Translations under genes and position numbers: made by a program | Notes under the pieces: generated by a model | Told to the model about the DNA's origin: nothing | Databases searched by the model: none | The model's input: only the letters and a program-made list of their open reading frames with translations | Source of the DNA: an uncultured Mycoplasma sp. | GTDB lineage: Bacteria > Bacillota_I > Bacilli_A > RF39 > UBA660 | Assembly (NCBI GenBank): GCA_947646115.1 | Contig: CANSFH010000003.1 | Location: forward strand, 16,078 to 80,077 | Direction: 5' to 3' | DNA length: 64,000 nucleotides | Shown here: positions 31,736 through 39,697 of the stretch, one piece after another | Layout of the letters: every line of letters starts with the position of its first letter | Position numbering within the stretch: the stretch's first letter is position 1

Positions 31736-31766
31736 AAAACTGCGAAATTTCTCCGCAGTTTTTATT
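31736..31766. terminator. bidirectional rho-independent terminator between prsA and the convergent operon
   Basis: AAAACTGCG-aaatttctc-CGCAGTTTT, flanked by a T-run on both strands. Confidence 0.7.
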
Positions 31767-31786: not shown

Positions 31787-32791
31787 TTATTTTCTTCTTG
31801 TAAGAATTGGTGACTCTTCCAGTTCTACTGGAGAATCTTCTTTTATTTTTTTATTTTTATTTAATTCAAAAACACAGTCATTAACTTTCATAAAACCATA
31901 ACCCGCTAACAATTGTTCAATAATAACAAGTTTAAAATATCCATGTTCAAATTTAATTGTCATTTTAAGAACTGGATGACTCATATTTCTGCTATCTTCA
32001 TCATCCATTAAAGTTGGAATATAAATAGATGGAATTGAGTTACGAAAATTAAAACGTGTTTGATGACTATGACCCTTTAGCCAAAACGTTTTTACTAACT
32101 TTAAATTTCTTTGTGTAGTGCCATTATCAAGTTTATGGAATACTCCAAATGCATCATTTTTAATTCTTATTATGCCACTTTCATAACCAATTGGAATGAT
32201 ATCATGTCGCCTTTCATGGAGAGCTAAAGCAATATCTTGGTTAGTTCTTAATAAGGCATCAAAATCATGGTTGCCTAAACATAGATAAGTTAAAATATTT
32301 TTATCATAAGGATAACGCTCTATAGCATAATTGATTTGCTCCTCTTGAGCACGCTCCACATCTTCTGTTTCTACAAAAAAATTCATAAAGCTATCAATAA
32401 AATCTCCGCCATTTATAATTGTATGTATTCCTTCTTTAGCACAATAATTAAAACAATTATCTAAAATATCTAAACGTTCTCTACTTCCAAAAATACTATA
32501 TTTTCCATTACGTCCAATATGTAAATCAGAGGTTAGTAAAGCTGTAAATTCTGTTTCTTCTGGTGCTGTAATAATACTCGCACTATCATTAAATGAAGCA
32601 GGATTATTTGTATAATTATAAATTATATCACCACTACTGTAATATTTTCGATCAAATGAATATCCTTTTTTTCTCAAATTAAATAGAATTTCCCAAAAAG
32701 TTTTATGGTCTATTTTTACAATATCAAGAATTTGATTAAGCGTAAAGTTTGCTTTTATTAAGCGAATTATTTTTATTTCTAGTTCTGTCAT
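31787..32791 (-). CDS. wHTH-like N-domain + calcineurin-type metallophosphoesterase
   Basis: MPE motifs SDLHIG (DxH), GGDFID (GD), LGNHD (GNH) and KGHSHQ (GH.H). The N-terminal 60 aa or so look like a winged helix (FTLNQILDIVKIDHKTFWEILFNLRKKGY). The ATG at 32791 is preceded by GGTGG. The track start at 32800 is the GTG inside that Shine-Dalgarno. Confidence 0.6.
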   Translation of the reverse strand: MTELEIKIIRLIKANFTLNQILDIVKIDHKTFWEILFNLRKKGYSFDRKYYSSGDIIYNYTNNPASFNDSASIITAPEETEFTALLTSDLHIGRNGKYSIFGSRERLDILDNCFNYCAKEGIHTIINGGDFIDSFMNFFVETEDVERAQEEQINYAIERYPYDKNILTYLCLGNHDFDALLRTNQDIALALHERRHDIIPIGYESGIIRIKNDAFGVFHKLDNGTTQRNLKLVKTFWLKGHSHQTRFNFRNSIPSIYIPTLMDDEDSRNMSHPVLKMTIKFEHGYFKLVIIEQLLAGYGFMKVNDCVFELNKNKKIKEDSPVELEESPILTRRK

Positions 32792-32828
32792 TTCCCCCAC
32801 CTAAATTAGTATAATATACGATTAAAAT

Positions 32829-33590
32829 CTATTTGTCAAGATATTTATCAATATTAATATCTATGTATCCTTTTTGATATAAATAATTTTTTATTTTCAT
32901 TTTAGTAGTATTTAAATCATATTTATTTATATACTTTTTATATAATTTATTTATTAATTTTTCTAATTCAAAAGTATTTTCTTCTATCTCTATCTCATTC
33001 AAACCAGTAATAATATCTTCTTTAGAAAATCCTTTATTGATTAATTCATCTAAAACTTTTCTTTTAAACTCATTAACACTTCGCTTGTTAGCTTTTGCTT
33101 TTTTGGTAATGTATTTATTTATTTTGGTAATATAAATACTTTTATCTACTTTAGCTAAATGAGGTAATATTTCATTTTCTTTAAAACCTAATTTAATTAA
33201 ATCTTTTAATATTTTAGTTTCTCCAACTAAATAAAGATTTAACATATCATGAATATAAGCTTCTATATATACTTCGTGATTTAAGTAACCTTCTTTTGCT
33301 AACTTTTCGATAGCATAATTAATTTCTTCGGAAGAATATTCCTTCTTTTTTAATAAGTTTTTTAATTCTATTTCACTCCGCATTTTAATCGAAACCATTT
33401 TTAAAGCACTATAATAGGCTTTTAACATATTATTTTTCGCTAAAATATTAGCAAATTCCTCTTTACTAATATCCTTTTTTAATAAGAGTTCACTTTTAAT
33501 AATTATATCATCAAAAAGTTTATAGTCTCCTTCATCTGTTGTTATTTTATATTCATTAGACTTTGTTTTTACATATTTAAGTATTTTCAT
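32829..33590 (-). CDS. recX: RecX family regulatory protein
   Basis: About 250 aa of repeated three-helix units (AYYSALKMVSIKMRSEIELKNLLKKKEYSSEEINYAIEKLAKEGYLNHEVY...), as in Firmicute RecX. Confidence 0.65.
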   Translation of the reverse strand: MKILKYVKTKSNEYKITTDEGDYKLFDDIIIKSELLLKKDISKEEFANILAKNNMLKAYYSALKMVSIKMRSEIELKNLLKKKEYSSEEINYAIEKLAKEGYLNHEVYIEAYIHDMLNLYLVGETKILKDLIKLGFKENEILPHLAKVDKSIYITKINKYITKKAKANKRSVNEFKRKVLDELINKGFSKEDIITGLNEIEIEENTFELEKLINKLYKKYINKYDLNTTKMKIKNYLYQKGYIDINIDKYLDK

Positions 33591-33635: not shown

Positions 33636-34742
33636 TTATTTTCGAATACGAGTCATTGCTTTATTAAATTCTGTTTGAAAATAAGAGTCTGTCATGCCAG
33701 CCAAATAATCAATAGCTATACGAGTATTATCGTTATTGTCTCTATAAATTTGGTTCATGCCATTCACGTACGCTACAACGGAAGAATTAGGATTCATTCT
33801 TTCTAGGTCTTGAACATAAATTTGAAACATAGTATCAAACATAAACTCAATATATTTTGCTTGTTCTGGTGATAATTTAGCCATATAAATATTAGCAGTA
33901 TTAAACTTTAAAAGTCTATCAAGTGTTTCATATACGATTGCACTAAACTCTAAATAAGGTTTATTGTAACTATTTTCTAACACATCATAAATAATGTTAT
34001 CAACAATTTCAGGAGTAGAATTACCAAGAATCTTTTTAATATCATTGGGAATATCTTCCCAAGTAAGAATTCCTACTCTCTTTGCATCATCTATATCTCG
34101 GCCAATATAAGAAACTAAATCACTTAAACGAACTGTTTGCCCTTCTAAAGTCATAGCATGAAGCCTGCCTAAAACACTTTTATCTTGATAACAAGCATAA
34201 TATTCTTCTAAAAATTCTTCTTTTGTTTTGGGGCGAGGAATATATCTTCTTTCAGTAACTTCTCCATTATGACATAAAGCTGTATCTAGAACTTGCATGG
34301 ATACATTAAGACCTTTTCCGTTGTTTTCCAAAAACATAAGATTTCTAACACTTTGAACATTATGATTAAAGAAACCAGCGCCATATTTCAAACTTATTTT
34401 ATTTAAAGCTCGCTCTCCTTCATGGCCAAAAGGAATATGTCCAAAATCATGTACACTTGCTCCTGCCTCAATTAAATCTTCATTTAAACCTAGATTACGG
34501 CCAATCGTTCTAGCAATTCTACCTGTTAATTCGACATGAATTTTTCTTTTTGTTAAATGGTCATTAGATGTCCAAAGCCTTGGAAACACTTGAGTTTTAT
34601 CCATATACCTAGAATAAGTATTGCAAGCAACTATTTTATTAGTATCATGATAAAACGGTGTATATATAGGATTAATTTCTTCTGGCTTTAAATATATTGC
34701 TTCTTCATCCCTACAAGCATATTCCGATAAGTTCTTTTTCAT
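33636..34742 (-). CDS. dGTPase-like HD-domain triphosphohydrolase paralog 1
   Basis: RKIHVE...VHDFGHIPFGHEGE...RLSDLVSYIGRDIDDA, giving the H..HD..D metal ligands of the Dgt/dNTPase family. Confidence 0.75.
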   Translation of the reverse strand: MKKNLSEYACRDEEAIYLKPEEINPIYTPFYHDTNKIVACNTYSRYMDKTQVFPRLWTSNDHLTKRKIHVELTGRIARTIGRNLGLNEDLIEAGASVHDFGHIPFGHEGERALNKISLKYGAGFFNHNVQSVRNLMFLENNGKGLNVSMQVLDTALCHNGEVTERRYIPRPKTKEEFLEEYYACYQDKSVLGRLHAMTLEGQTVRLSDLVSYIGRDIDDAKRVGILTWEDIPNDIKKILGNSTPEIVDNIIYDVLENSYNKPYLEFSAIVYETLDRLLKFNTANIYMAKLSPEQAKYIEFMFDTMFQIYVQDLERMNPNSSVVAYVNGMNQIYRDNNDNTRIAIDYLAGMTDSYFQTEFNKAMTRIRK

Positions 34743-34755
34743 ATAAACTCCTTAA

Positions 34756-35901
34756 CTATTGTGTTCTAGCCCTTACTAATTCTTTTTTATACTCATTTTT
34801 AAAATAATTAGTAGTCATACCAGAAATATAATCTAAAGCTACTCTTTCTCTACTGTTGTTTCTTTGATATTCTGGAGTCATATTATGATAATATTGTACT
34901 ACTAAAGATTGCTCTTTATCCTTATCTAAATCTTGCAAATACGCATTAAACAAAGTATTAAACATGACTTCCATTTGTTCCTTTTCTCCTGGTTTTAAAT
35001 AATTATGATAGATATTTTTGGTGTTAATTTCTAAAAGCTTTTTTAAAGCAATAAATATTTTATCACTCATAGCAATATATGGTTTATTAAAACTAGATTT
35101 AACTATATCTCTAATACAAGTATTTACTAGCTCACTACGAGAGTGACCTAAAACAGCTAAAATATCTTCAGGTACTTCTTGCCAAGAAAAAATCCCGTAT
35201 CTTTCAGCGTCATCAAGATCTCGTCCTAAATATGCAATTAAATCACTAATGCGAATAACACATCCTTCTAATGTCATTGGAACAATTCTATTTAAAACGG
35301 TTTTATCTTGATATGTGGCATAATATTCTGCCATAAATTGTTCTAAAGTTTTACTATGAGGTTCCATAACTGGTTGTAAACCTTTACTATTATGGCATAA
35401 AATAGCATCTAATACTTGTAAGGAAATATTTAATCCTTGTCCATGATTTTCTAAAAACATTAAATTTCTAACGCTTTGGACGTTATGGTTAAACCGTCCT
35501 TCACCTACAGACTGACTAATATCATCTAAAATATATTCTCCTTCATGACCAAAGGGAACATGACCAAGATCGTGTCCTTTCCCTGCTGCTTCTAATAAAT
35601 GTTCATTTAAACCAAGAAAAATACCTGTAGTTCTTGCAACACGACTAACCAACTCGACATGAATCATTCTATTTTGAATGTGATCATAAGTATTATTATG
35701 AGTGTATACTTGAGGTTTTCCAATATATCTTGTATAAGATGCCGAATTTATTATTGCTTCAGTATCCTCATAAAATGGTGGCAAAAAACTAGATTTTCTC
35801 TCATTAAAATAAACAGCATATAAATCATGGCAAGCATATGCTGATAAAATATCGTTATGTTTATATATTTGTTTTATACTTTCTTCTAACATTTCAAACA
35901 C
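34756..35901 (-). CDS. dGTPase-like HD-domain triphosphohydrolase paralog 2
   Basis: RMIHVE...GHDLGHVPFGHEGE...RISDLIAYLGRDLDDA. Confidence 0.75.
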   Translation of the reverse strand: MFEMLEESIKQIYKHNDILSAYACHDLYAVYFNERKSSFLPPFYEDTEAIINSASYTRYIGKPQVYTHNNTYDHIQNRMIHVELVSRVARTTGIFLGLNEHLLEAAGKGHDLGHVPFGHEGEYILDDISQSVGEGRFNHNVQSVRNLMFLENHGQGLNISLQVLDAILCHNSKGLQPVMEPHSKTLEQFMAEYYATYQDKTVLNRIVPMTLEGCVIRISDLIAYLGRDLDDAERYGIFSWQEVPEDILAVLGHSRSELVNTCIRDIVKSSFNKPYIAMSDKIFIALKKLLEINTKNIYHNYLKPGEKEQMEVMFNTLFNAYLQDLDKDKEQSLVVQYYHNMTPEYQRNNSRERVALDYISGMTTNYFKNEYKKELVRARTQ

Positions 35902-35939
35902 CCTGCTTATTTATATTTTATCATATTTATTTATAATTT

Positions 35940-37067
35940 TTAATTTAATTTATTATTTTTTTCATACTCTTTCAAGAAAAATTCATCGGTCATACCAGAT
36001 ATGTAATCAATAACTATTCTAGCATTAGTGTTTTTTTCTTGATAATCTAGACACATATTATTTAAATAAGACGAAACGATCACAGAATCTCTATTATTAC
36101 TTTCTAAATCAGCTAAATATTTATTAAATAATGTTTCAAACATTGTTTTTAGCTTATGCCTATTTTTAGAAGATTCAGAATTATTATAAATATATTTGTA
36201 ATTAAATTGCATAAGTTCTTTAATTGCTTTATAAATGTCACTACTTAATTCTAGATAATTTTTATTATAGCTATTTTTAATGATATCTAAAATGCAACTA
36301 TTTACAATATCACTAGTATTATCACCTAAAGTTTTTACGATAAATTCAGGAATATCTTCCCTTTTTAGCATAGACATTCTAATAGCGTCATCTATGTCAC
36401 GACCAAGATAAGCTATAAGGTCACTTATTCTAACTACACAACCTTCAAGAGTCATAGGTTTCATATTAGTAATCGTTTCTTTAGATTTATAGCTTTCTTC
36501 GTATTCTTTTAAAAATTCATCTTTAGTTTTTCTTACAGGTTCATAACGCCCTAAAGCAAATTCGCCATTATGACACATAATAGCGTCTAATACTTGAATA
36601 GATATATTTAGTCCTTGTCCAAAATTTTCAACATAAAGAAGTTTTCTAACACTTTCGATATTATGATTAAAGAAACCTTCATTATGATTTAAACTAATTT
36701 CATTTAAAATAGATTCTCCAATGTGACCAAAAGGAACATGGCCTAAATCATGAGCTAGCGAAGCTGCTTCGATTAAATCTTCATTTAACCCTAAAGCTCG
36801 ACCAATAGTTCTCGCTATTTTACTTACAAATTGTACATGAATCATTCTTTTGGAAATATGATCATTTTTAGTAAAAGAAAACACTTGAGTTTTGTCTTGA
36901 TAACGAATAAAGCTTAAACTATATAGTATTTTATCAATATCGTGAAAAAATGATGTTCTAATATCGCTTTTGGTAGGTTTTAAATAGATTGCTTCTTGAT
37001 CTTTACAAGCATATTGAGATAATATTAAATTATGACTAGCCATTCTTTCTTTTATTTGATTTTCCAT
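35940..37067 (-). CDS. dGTPase-like HD-domain triphosphohydrolase paralog 3
   Basis: RMIHVQ...AHDLGHVPFGHIGE...RISDLIAYLGRDIDDA. The 5' end overlaps the amidase gene; an alternative ATG lies at 37043. Confidence 0.75.
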   Translation of the reverse strand: MENQIKERMASHNLILSQYACKDQEAIYLKPTKSDIRTSFFHDIDKILYSLSFIRYQDKTQVFSFTKNDHISKRMIHVQFVSKIARTIGRALGLNEDLIEAASLAHDLGHVPFGHIGESILNEISLNHNEGFFNHNIESVRKLLYVENFGQGLNISIQVLDAIMCHNGEFALGRYEPVRKTKDEFLKEYEESYKSKETITNMKPMTLEGCVVRISDLIAYLGRDIDDAIRMSMLKREDIPEFIVKTLGDNTSDIVNSCILDIIKNSYNKNYLELSSDIYKAIKELMQFNYKYIYNNSESSKNRHKLKTMFETLFNKYLADLESNNRDSVIVSSYLNNMCLDYQEKNTNARIVIDYISGMTDEFFLKEYEKNNKLN

Positions 37068-38919
37068 AAGTTCTCCTTTTATTATTTTTCTTTATTTTAT
37101 GTGTTAAATGTTTTAAAGATTTTTTAATCTCTAAATAAATAGTAATAGCTATTGGTGCTAATATGACAATAATTAAAATTAAAGCTATTTTATAATTAAT
37201 TAAACTACTAATCTCTGAAATATTTTCAGAAATAATTTCTACTATAGGAACTTTTTTATTTTTAAATTCTTCTATTAACTTGGTTGCTAATTCTTCATTT
37301 TTTAAAGTATCGTTGTGATGATATTCTAAAAAGAAATTTTTAGTATTATTAATTAATTTAGTATAATTTTTATTTTGATAATATTGTTCGTATAGTCCTT
37401 TTAATTCAGAAATATAATCGGGGATTTCATAAAGACTAGGAGTTAAAGGACTATTTGATAGTTCTAAACCATTTAACTTTTCAAATATCGAAGCAATTTT
37501 ATAAAGGTTTTCTTCATTATATTTGGTACTAAAGAATTCTAATCCATATGGAAGATTATCAATATATCCCATAGGTATAGTAATTGAAGGATACCCTATT
37601 ACAGGACTCAAACCACTTCCAGGAGCGTTAAGACTTCCTCCTTGATTTAGTTTGAGTTGTTTAGCTTTCATTGTGGGATAAACAAGTACTTCAACATCAT
37701 ATTCTTTCATAACTTCTAAAATATGATCTTCAAATTTTTTTTTCTTAGCATTGATATTTTTCAAATTATTTTGCCATGCTCCTGTACAACCACTAAGATA
37801 ACCTGATATGCCATATATATGGCCTTCTGCATATACTAAATCTTTAAAGGAGCGAATTTTTCCCGTAGTATTTTTAATATAATTATTAAAGCCAGTACAA
37901 AAACTAATACCAGTCATAGTAGAACTTGCTATATTAGAATAATAGCTATTTACTAGACGATCAATCGCAATTAAATTAGCACCATTATCTTTTAATAACT
38001 GTAATTTTTCATTAGTAAGAGTGGAAATATCTGTATCTGTTTTAGAATTAGCGCCATATTCATTGGCATAACCATCAACATAACCAGTTATAACACCAAT
38101 TTTAAAATCAGATAAATTATTTTTAGTACTATTCTTATAATTATCATTATCCGCTATAATATCTAAAATTAATGCATTATCTTGTACCGTTTTCGTTAAA
38201 ATACCAACTGTATCTCTTTCTAAATCATAAGGAATTACACCTTCACTACTAATTAAACCTAAAGTTGGTCTTAAACCTACTAAACCTGCGGCAGAGGCAG
38301 GAACTCTAACCGAAGAGTTAGTATCTGTACCTAAAGATGCGGCAGCAAAACTAGTTGCTATGGCAACAGCACTACCACCACTAGATCCATTGGGAGAATA
38401 TTGGGTATTAAAGGCATTTTTGACATTACCATAGGAGCTATTAGAAGCAATGGCTTGAAAAGCAAATTCACTCATGTTTGTAGATCCTAATATAATAGCG
38501 CCAGCATCTTTTAACTTCTTGATAACTGTTGCATCACTTTTAGGATAATTATCTTGCAAAGATTTTGCTCCAGCAGTGGTCATAATTCCCAAAACATCAA
38601 TATTAGTCTTTACAAGTATAGGTATACCATGTAAAGCTCCTCTAACATAGCCATTTTGTCGTTCGTTATCTAAAGTTTTGGCTTCTGCTAAAGCATTGGG
38701 ATTTAATTCTCTTATTGCATTAAATTCTTGGTTATATGCTTCAATACGATCTAAATATAATTTAACTAAAAGTTCACTTGTTAAGTATCCTTTGTCTAAA
38801 GCATCACTTAAATCCTCAATACTAGTTTTCGTGATATCCACGACAGATTTATCATATGCAAAAACATTTAATGGTATTAGACTTATTAATATAGCTATTA
38901 TATATTTCAACTTCTTCAT
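37036..38919 (-). CDS. amidase-signature (GatA-like) amidase, secreted with a C-terminal membrane anchor
   Basis: Signal peptide MKKLKYIIAILISLIPLNVFA. GGSSGGSAVAIA...GTDTNSSVRVPAS signature. C-terminal TM (IALILIIVILAPIAITIYL) plus a basic tail. Confidence 0.8.
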   Translation of the reverse strand: MKKLKYIIAILISLIPLNVFAYDKSVVDITKTSIEDLSDALDKGYLTSELLVKLYLDRIEAYNQEFNAIRELNPNALAEAKTLDNERQNGYVRGALHGIPILVKTNIDVLGIMTTAGAKSLQDNYPKSDATVIKKLKDAGAIILGSTNMSEFAFQAIASNSSYGNVKNAFNTQYSPNGSSGGSAVAIATSFAAASLGTDTNSSVRVPASAAGLVGLRPTLGLISSEGVIPYDLERDTVGILTKTVQDNALILDIIADNDNYKNSTKNNLSDFKIGVITGYVDGYANEYGANSKTDTDISTLTNEKLQLLKDNGANLIAIDRLVNSYYSNIASSTMTGISFCTGFNNYIKNTTGKIRSFKDLVYAEGHIYGISGYLSGCTGAWQNNLKNINAKKKKFEDHILEVMKEYDVEVLVYPTMKAKQLKLNQGGSLNAPGSGLSPVIGYPSITIPMGYIDNLPYGLEFFSTKYNEENLYKIASIFEKLNGLELSNSPLTPSLYEIPDYISELKGLYEQYYQNKNYTKLINNTKNFFLEYHHNDTLKNEELATKLIEEFKNKKVPIVEIISENISEISSLINYKIALILIIVILAPIAITIYLEIKKSLKHLTHKIKKNNKRRTYGKSNKRKNG

Positions 38920-38971: not shown

Positions 38972-39697
38972 TTATTCATTTGTAATTTTTTTCAAGAAGT
39001 TTTTACTTTTTAAATATAAACCTGTATACCTATCATAATAGGTATTTAAGAAATTATTTATTTCATTTTTAGCATTCGAGCTTATATTTAAATTTGTAAT
39101 ACTTTTAATTTCAACGTAATAATACATACGCAATAATTCTATAGTTTTAGGTTCGACTAAAGGTTCATTTTGATAACAATTTTGACAAATATATCCTCCA
39201 CGGTCACCGTCTATAGTTACAATATTTTTAGTAGAATTACAACTAACACAACAATCTAAATTTAAGCCTACTCCTAAATAATCTAAATATTTTATTTCTA
39301 AAATATTACACATTATTAGAGGATCTAATCCTTCATTTATTTTTAAAATAGTTGCTAGAAAGTCCTGATATATGTCATCACATGATTGTTTTACTACTTG
39401 TTCTGTAAGTTCAGTTAAATAATTTAAATAGCTTAATAAAACTATATCGTTTTTAATTGTACTTAAGGAATTTATAACATCAACACTTTTTAGGGTAGAT
39501 AACTTATTTTCTTTGTAATAAATAATAAATTTTGCATAGGTAAATTTTAAAGTTGTAGCTCTAAATTGACTTTTTAAAGATCTAGCTCCTTTACACATAA
39601 TCCCTATTATACCCTCATTAGTATAAACATTTATTATCTTAGATGTCTCACTGTATGGGGTTTCTTTTATGATAATTCCTTCTATTTCTCGTATCAT
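38972..39697 (-). CDS. recO: DNA repair protein RecO
   Basis: OB N-domain and a Cys4 zinc finger (CVSC...CQNC). era-yqzL-recO synteny. Confidence 0.85.
   Translation of the reverse strand: MIREIEGIIIKETPYSETSKIINVYTNEGIIGIMCKGARSLKSQFRATTLKFTYAKFIIYYKENKLSTLKSVDVINSLSTIKNDIVLLSYLNYLTELTEQVVKQSCDDIYQDFLATILKINEGLDPLIMCNILEIKYLDYLGVGLNLDCCVSCNSTKNIVTIDGDRGGYICQNCYQNEPLVEPKTIELLRMYYYVEIKSITNLNISSNAKNEINNFLNTYYDRYTGLYLKSKNFLKKITNE

Follow-up and report, generated by a model that had tools for sequence, protein, structure and literature searches.

The 64,000-nucleotide stretch of contig CANSFH010000003.1 analyzed here (referred to as the window; GenBank assembly GCA_947646115.1) comes from an uncultured Mycoplasma sp. 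of the GTDB lineage RF39; UBA660, a metagenome-assembled genome (G000) of the Bacilli with a size of 1.23 Mb, a GC content of 27% and a completeness of 91%. Three genes in tandem on the minus strand, designated par3, par2 and par1 in the order of transcription, code for proteins of the Dgt family of deoxynucleoside triphosphate (dNTP) triphosphohydrolases (Table 1). Their coordinates and lengths (368, 381 and 375 aa) match those given in a preliminary description of this DNA. As proposed there, the three proteins are full-length mutual homologs, being 49–52% identical in pairwise comparison when aligned end to end, and all of them contain the Pfam domains HD and HD_assoc, the latter above the cut-off in each. 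No further copy was found in the 1.23-Mb genome beyond the three tandem genes. The start codon of par2 is most likely the ATG rather than the GTG nine nucleotides before it, because an AGGG motif precedes the ATG by 8 nt and because 378 aa is also the length of the database cluster P0078. The gaps within the triplet measure 38 nt between par3 and par2 and 13 nt between the par2 stop and the par1 start. In a consensus scan, the sole convincing terminator 3' of the triplet is located ~1.9 kb away, past recX and a metallophosphoesterase gene, which suggests that the triplet and these two genes form one long transcription unit.

Table 1. Coordinates of the three tandem genes and of associated features in the window.
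Feature	Coordinates	Strand	Description
par3	35940..37067	(-)	375 aa; first gene of the triplet; putative ancestral-type TT1383/Dgt-like dNTP triphosphohydrolase; ortholog of the single-copy gene found in relatives
par2	34756..35892	(-)	378 aa from ATG at 35892; 381 aa from GTG at 35901; derived paralog
par1	33636..34742	(-)	368 aa; derived paralog; fastest-evolving position
Shine-Dalgarno AAGGAG	37073..37078	(-)	5 nt before the par3 ATG, within the 3' end of the amidase gene
Shine-Dalgarno AAGGAG	34748..34753	(-)	5 nt before the par1 ATG
Intrinsic terminator	31736..31762	(-)	12-bp stem and T run; consensus scan
recO	38972..39697	(-)	Pfam RecO_N and RecO_C; upstream boundary of the slot era-recO-[dgt]-recX
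recX	32829..33590	(-)	Pfam RecX_HTH1 and RecX_HTH3; downstream neighbor of the single-copy gene and of the triplet within the genus
Amidase-signature gene	37036..38919	(-)	627 aa; Pfam Amidase, E 3e-84; upstream neighbor, not part of the dNTPase set
Metallophosphoesterase gene	31787-32800	(-)	Pfam Metallophos; between recX and the oppositely oriented prsA

All three proteins have their best NCBIfam match with NF002327 (PRK01286.1-2 dGTPase), with E-values of 1e-67 to 1e-84 and equivalog scores of 283, 233 and 229 bits against a cut-off of 393. With TIGR01353 (cut-off 152.35 bits), par3 scores 177.9 and is alone above the cut-off, par1 and par2 scoring 131.4 and 132.1. The placement with Pfam and NCBIfam profiles that the preliminary description had called for thus gives the TT1383/Dgt type, the PRK01286 group being best, and by these scores the paralogs are assigned as members of the Dgt family, not as equivalogs of a characterized enzyme. 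Active-site residues were mapped by alignment to E. coli K-12 Dgt, whose numbering agrees with that of the published work describing the functions of its catalytic and contact residues (PMC6511015). The metal ligands H77, H106, D107 and D216 (par3 numbering, used throughout) are invariant in 15 of 15 triplet genes and in 39 single-copy orthologs. The His/Glu dyad H115 and E118 of the FGH.GE motif (E. coli H126/E129), the essential tyrosine Y220 (E. coli Y272), Q61 (E. coli Q53) and D224 (E. coli D276) are found in all copies. Nine further substrate-contact positions are also kept in all three paralogs. The earlier claim of intact catalytic residues therefore holds: on alignment, par3, par2 and par1 of every lineage carrying the triplet keep all 16 positions for metal binding, catalysis and substrate contact, and no degenerate active site was found. 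The catalytic set has only two exceptions, N136S and V62A, each in one of the deeply divergent third-position genes of the lineages L028 and L032 described below. We infer from the homology to L. blandensis and E. coli Dgt and from TT1383 biochemistry that par1, par2 and par3 are active dNTPases.

The structural models of par1 (predicted local distance difference test score, pLDDT, of 92.4 and predicted template-modeling score, pTM, of 0.91) and of par2 (pLDDT 93.2, pTM 0.92) both appear as complete TT1383-like subunits. The top fold matches of par1 are chains of TT1383 from Thermus thermophilus HB8 (PDB 2dqb), with template-modeling scores of 0.70–0.76 and a probability of 1.00, and the top fold matches are all hexameric Dgt-type enzymes. 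The hexameric 2dqb is also the closest solved structure by sequence (E-value of 2e-38 for par3 and of 1e-48 for the family profile). No chain of SAMHD1 or EF1143 is present among the structure-sequence matches at E ≤ 1e-5, and enzymes of this tetrameric type are not the closest relatives of the paralogs. TT1383 resembles them in its length of ~375 aa, in the HD and HD_assoc domains and in the catalytic motifs, and it has the N-terminal R-T-P-Y…D.DRI motif in common with par3. However, TT1383 is a single gene whose product forms a homohexamer, in contrast to the three diverged tandem paralogs here, the identity is ~24–35%, and two of the three paralogs lack the N-terminal arginine(s). All three paralogs have counterparts of the His/Glu dyad, Tyr272, Gln53/Val54, Asp276 and the phosphate-binding Asn186 of E. 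coli Dgt and L. blandensis dGTPase, and the allosteric intradimer site of these two enzymes is formed from the same N-terminal segment. Unlike the paralogs, these enzymes are ~440–505 aa long, have the guanine-specific residues F391, E400, R433 and R442 within insertions that are absent here, and occur as one copy per subfamily; the paralogs score far below their NCBIfam cut-offs.

A single copy is clearly the norm for this enzyme, as had been presumed in the preliminary description, and almost no sequenced congener has the triplet. With par3 as the query, one copy was found in 23 of 24 congeneric species, 61–70% identical to par3, and no copy was found in 16 other families of the class. Of 200 genera in the family, 106 carry a single copy and no genus carries three. 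Two copies occur in only two of 400 genomes of the class, and in both the copies are unlinked and only distantly related to one another. With an alignment of the par2 clade as the query, GTDB genomes and metagenomes yielded 115 further loci, none more than 51% identical and all with one copy within ±4.5 kb. A single par2 sequence used as the query returned no relatives in genome contigs or metagenome contigs.

Several side observations were made during these searches. The genomes G344 and G364 (family f23 of the same class) have two unlinked Dgt-family genes each, of different subfamilies, 45% and 36–38% identical to par3. According to the work of Mega et al. (2009), as cited in PMC12186491, Pseudomonas aeruginosa has two dNTPases of different specificities, PA1124 and PA3043. 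This pair shows that one bacterium can have several Dgt-family dNTPases that differ in substrate range. The two are unlinked and belong to anciently separate subfamilies, unlike the lineage-specific tandem expansion seen here. Because their genes are unlinked and of differing subfamilies, G344 and G364 resemble the Pseudomonas case and not a tandem expansion. G206, from another genus of the family, has two short dgt-like fragments (C22:18009-18448; open frames of 46 and 135 aa) in addition to its single full-length copy. The fragments sit on a different contig from that copy, and they may be what is left of a second copy that decayed. In the single-copy orthologs of G016, G237, G097, G161, G195, G465, G433, G160 and G060, one in-frame stop (TAA, TAG or TGA) was flagged in the aligned range; these stops are candidates for alignment overhang past the gene end, sequencing error or pseudogenes.

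Beyond the window, the triplet was found in four metagenomic lineages, L025, L026, L028/L029 and L032. As the three genes occur on these contigs in the same order and in the same recO…recX slot, the triplet is conserved, although only within a narrow subclade composed of this genome and the four lineages. The "conserved triplet" of the preliminary description is accordingly correct for these five lineages and fails on a broader scale, with 23 of 24 congeners being single-copy. An assembly artifact was considered and rejected, because five independent assemblies agree on the tandem and the copies are only ~50% identical. A search of 5.8 billion proteins gave orthologs of par1 at 77% identity and of par2 at 88, 81, 73, 65 and 63%. 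By lineage, the par2 orthologs are 88% (L026), 81% (L025), 65% (L028) and 63% (L032) identical, and those of par1 90% (L026) and 77% (L025). The third-position genes of L028 and L032 belong to the same clade of extra copies, yet they are only 46–51% identical to par1. With the third-position gene of L028 as the query, one near-identical fragment (P0165) was obtained, all other matches being ~50–54% identical, and no further lineage with this gene type (par1b) was found.

In a maximum-likelihood (ML) tree of 54 sequences, the first genes of the triplets form one group within the genus clade (support 99/97), which also includes the single-copy gene of the congeneric genome G018. The extra copies of all lineages form a single clade (100/99) with a long stem. 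This clade divides into a par2 group with five lineages and a clade support of 100/99, a par1 group with three lineages, and the very divergent third-position genes of L028 and L032. A smaller tree places the extra copies inside the genus polytomy, and monophyly of all triplet genes is not rejected in an approximately unbiased (AU) test (p = 0.168). The tandem triplication at this locus is old and has become fixed in its lineage. The phylogeny, which had been recommended for distinguishing recent from ancient duplication, thus points to one old expansion kept by selection, and the strain-specific recent duplication considered in the preliminary description does not apply, the duplication being old and shared by five lineages.

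The most economical history consists of an in-place duplication, fast divergence of the new copies and a probable loss in G018. A single-copy gene in the arrangement recO-[dgt]-recX would have duplicated in place in the ancestor of the subclade, probably in two steps, the first giving par3 and a proto-extra copy and the second giving par2 and par1 from the extra copy. The par3 gene stayed ancestral-like; par2 and par1 diverged in a burst and are now under purifying selection. The single dgt copy of G018 (L010, 1486-2610; genome 63% complete) lies in a contiguous locus of a 467-aa gene, dgt and recX. Since this copy nests among the par3 genes of the triplet lineages, G018 probably lost both extra copies at once, secondarily. 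A par2-type gene was also encountered outside the triplet, on a contig of 2269 bp from Logan SRR8298008 (L169, gene at 319-1452). It is 73–75% identical to par2, nests within the par2 clade and has the motifs GKIQVY, CHNST and GMTT. It is a solitary gene, flanked by a GatB/YqeY-like C-terminus and by an unrelated open reading frame on the opposite strand, and its flanks have no match on either side in the genome of the window. It is a relocated or horizontally transferred gene.

All three paralogs are under purifying selection. For pairs with unsaturated synonymous sites, the pairwise ratio of nonsynonymous to synonymous substitution rates (dN/dS) between orthologs is 0.10–0.25 for par1, par2 and par3, and the third-position gene evolves fastest at depth. 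For the par2 orthologs taken separately, the range is 0.12–0.29. Between paralogs, the identity is ~50% and synonymous sites are saturated, with a synonymous divergence (dS) of about 1–1.3. A reading of any copy as a pseudoenzyme or regulatory subunit was rejected, because the catalytic residues are complete and kept under purifying selection. Divergence from the ancestral state was evaluated over 123 alignment columns that are at least 92% conserved in the 39 single-copy orthologs. The ancestral residue is kept in 97.6% of these columns in the par3 type, including R37 and K46 of the allosteric site, compared to 81% in par2, 83.5% in par1 and 80% in the deep third-position genes.

The replacements fixed in the extra copies can be related to known effector sites. 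In hexameric Dgt enzymes, two subunits together form the allosteric site, which lies at the dimer interface; in L. blandensis dGTPase this intradimer effector site is coupled to the active-site loop, and dATP activation is abolished by R28A and by R37A (PMC9257424). TT1383 hydrolyzes all four dNTPs and, with Mg2+, requires dNTP activators (PMC12186491). R37, equivalent to R28 in L. blandensis, is lost in every extra copy, being replaced by L or M in par2, by Y in par1 and otherwise by S or N. K/R46 (L. blandensis R37, E. coli R38) is A or E in most par2 sequences and L in the deep third-position genes. Y49 (L. blandensis F40, E. coli N41) is replaced in the extra copies by N or A, with Y49A in par1, and K83 (L. 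blandensis V74, E. coli Q75) by R or Q. All par2 sequences have P in place of T60, next to the equivalents of E. coli Q53/V54 (KPQV), and S and K in place of G168 and E169, just after the equivalent of E. coli Y212 (CHNSK). The HD_assoc motif DY(I/L)(A/S)GMTD ends in GMTD in par3 and par1, and in all par2 sequences D361 of this motif, which has no mapped equivalent in the L. blandensis or E. coli enzyme, is replaced by T or S (GMTT/GMTS). Further changes in par1 are D45N, V81T and C210Q/V211T. The loop after KTQV, which corresponds by position to the active-site loop 55–58 of L. blandensis dGTPase, has indels specific to each paralog clade, with a 2-residue insertion in par1. We infer from the alignment that par2 and par1 have lost or replaced effector-site residues, namely the equivalents of L. 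blandensis R28, R37 (E. coli R38), F40 (E. coli N41) and V74 (E. coli Q75), and that the active-site loop, which couples the effector site to deoxyribose recognition, is altered in both.

The neighbors of the triplet are housekeeping genes (ybeY, dgkA, era, recO, recX and prsA) in addition to the amidase gene, and no mobile or defense genes were found next to the locus. Examination of neighborhood conservation, as suggested earlier, found the recO…recX slot to be fixed across the genus. The order recO-dgt-recX is kept only within the genus, and in other genera the single-copy gene is located beside other housekeeping genes, namely polA, alaS, greA or a U32 peptidase gene; for this reason, the link of dgt to recombination genes is probably positional, not functional. 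The single-copy ancestor was inherited vertically. The amidase has a signal peptide and a C-terminal transmembrane helix, and its gene extends 32 nt into the start of par3. It is confined to the crown lineages of the triplet (the window, L025 and L026), the order in L025 being era-recO-amidase-HD-HD-HD-recX. In G004, which has no amidase, recO abuts dgt, and G018 and L032 have an unrelated gene of 458–467 aa, without a Pfam match, in its place. The amidase gene entered the slot later, in the crown lineages. The metallophosphoesterase gene was apparently inserted recently and in this genome only, since recX directly abuts prsA in L026, L028 and the single-copy relatives.

The only ribonucleotide reductase (RNR) detected in the 91% complete genome is NrdD, the class III anaerobic enzyme (C13:24673-26466); no class I or class II RNR and no deoxynucleoside kinase of the dNK family were detected, and dNTP synthesis appears to rest on NrdD alone. 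A replacement of lost dNTP-sanitizing enzymes by the extra copies was considered and rejected, because a dUTPase gene and two Ham1/ITPase-like genes are retained in the genome, as they are in its relatives.

Because the catalytic set is kept while the regulatory segment and the active-site loop have changed, we favor, with somewhat better than even confidence, a subfunctionalized housekeeping enzyme, in which the triplet would provide three dNTPase activities that are differently regulated and possibly of different specificities. In such an arrangement, par3 would be the ancestral-type enzyme, and par2 and par1 would be catalytically competent derivatives with rewritten regulatory, and perhaps specificity, determinants. 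The three activities together would trim a dNTP pool made only via NrdD, and the subunits may form separate hexamers or combine in hybrid ones. Fixed replacements are found at 9 of 22 conserved positions in the N-terminal allosteric segment compared to 19 of 101 elsewhere (odds ratio of 3.0, one-sided p = 0.029, clades pooled), an enrichment that is suggestive only. Several points weigh against this interpretation. The enrichment is modest, with per-clade p values of about 0.1 for a segment chosen after inspection of the data, and many fixed changes are located elsewhere in the protein. The allosteric mapping rests on the L. blandensis and E. coli enzymes, which are ~15–25% identical, and not on the site of TT1383 itself. 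The base-specificity determinants of E. coli Dgt sit in an insertion absent from this short subfamily, and a change of substrate specificity is for that reason not readable from the sequence. In addition, the extra-copy clade branches just outside the genus clade in the ML tree, a position that fits an older origin or a transfer as well. Of the two possibilities raised in the preliminary description, a hetero-oligomer and diverged specificities, both are live hypotheses.

The dNTP triphosphohydrolases, including Dgt, TT1383 and SAMHD1, have been studied as homo-oligomers. The three paralogs could instead be subunits of one obligate pseudo-symmetric hetero-hexamer, e.g. a trimer of different dimers or heterodimers, in which par3 would give intact effector half-sites, par2 and par1 would give altered ones, and none would work properly alone. 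The conserved gene order and the tight spacing, with gaps of 13 and 38 nt and a Shine-Dalgarno site for each gene, are consistent with such a complex, as are the hexameric state of the closest structure, 2dqb, and the location of the differences between paralogs at the two-subunit effector site of the dimer interface. The recO-recX slot was never seen with a tandem of two copies, and G018 suggests a joint loss of both extra copies. However, the full catalytic set in each copy means that no paralog looks like a dedicated non-catalytic partner, and the lone par2-type gene of L169, within the par2 clade and in a foreign context, argues against an obligate heteromer, which we consider rather unlikely. 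It is more doubtful still that a single pseudo-symmetric hexamer, built as a trimer of three different dimers, has a distinct effector site at each interface and reads several dNTP levels at once. By adjusting degradation, such a complex would balance the pool much as the specificity site of RNR does through synthesis.

With regard to the origin of the extra copies, their acquisition by horizontal transfer and insertion beside the resident gene would explain the position of their clade outside the genus clade in the 54-sequence tree. The copy of L169 in its foreign context indicates that par2-type genes can move, and other genes have been inserted into the slot (the amidase, the 458–467-aa gene and the metallophosphoesterase). 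However, the best matches of par1 and par2 outside the triplet contigs among the 5.8 billion proteins are 51–54% identical, the same as their identity to par3, and nothing above 54% was found that could be a candidate donor. No par2 ortholog turned up when GTDB species genomes and metagenome contigs were scanned. The AU test leaves the monophyly of all triplet genes standing, and the basal placement can be explained by long branches. Such a transfer is improbable.

The preliminary description had raised an anti-phage function by nucleotide depletion, in which diversified defense dNTPases would sense different phage cues or escape phage inhibitors. The Dgt family does include proven defense enzymes (Tal et al., bioRxiv 10.1101/2021.04.26.441389; Clover CloA, PMC12265719), and the burst of fast evolution in the extra copies would be compatible with such a role. 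The PADLOC dGTPase model matches all three proteins with 140–192 bits; this model is generic and would match any member of the family. In contrast, the scores are only 84–125 bits with the NCBIfam model antiphage_dGTPase (NF041026; cut-off 400) and 63–110 bits with NF003701 (cut-off 383). Sp-dGTPase (NF041026) and the Clover system, composed of the dNTPase CloA and the nucleotidyltransferase CloB (PMC12265719), share the superfamily and the chemistry of the paralogs. The triplet, however, is below the model cut-off and outside any defense island, with no CloB-like nucleotidyltransferase or other known partner gene among the flanking genes. The locus lies among housekeeping genes within era-recO…recX, in a slot fixed across the genus, its single-copy ancestor is vertical and located beside polA, alaS or greA in other genera, and present dN/dS values are low. 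The defense reading is thus not supported, and we regard it as highly improbable. A redundant dosage duplication without functional differentiation, to which the catalytic residues in all copies would be suited, hardly deserves credence given that the paralogs are only ~50% identical with saturated synonymous sites, that clade-fixed replacements at otherwise invariant positions have long been retained, and that the expansion is kept in at least five lineages.

The distribution of the triplet is narrow, within uncultured gut Bacilli, and it represents a known kind of enzyme in a new tandem arrangement; no report of tandem Dgt-family paralog sets or of hetero-oligomeric dNTPases was found in the literature. 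As a caution, multiplied dNTPase genes alone are not evidence of phage defense. How effector specificity evolves at allosteric sites of subunit interfaces is an open question (PMC9257424). The locus is a natural experiment in which an ancestral-type subunit stands beside two derivatives with kept chemistry and a rewritten regulatory segment and active-site loop. The three proteins could reveal how effector dependence and substrate range are partitioned after duplication, and whether mixed hexamers form. The pseudo-symmetric hexamer of three different dimers, if true, would be the first natural hetero-oligomeric dNTP triphosphohydrolase.

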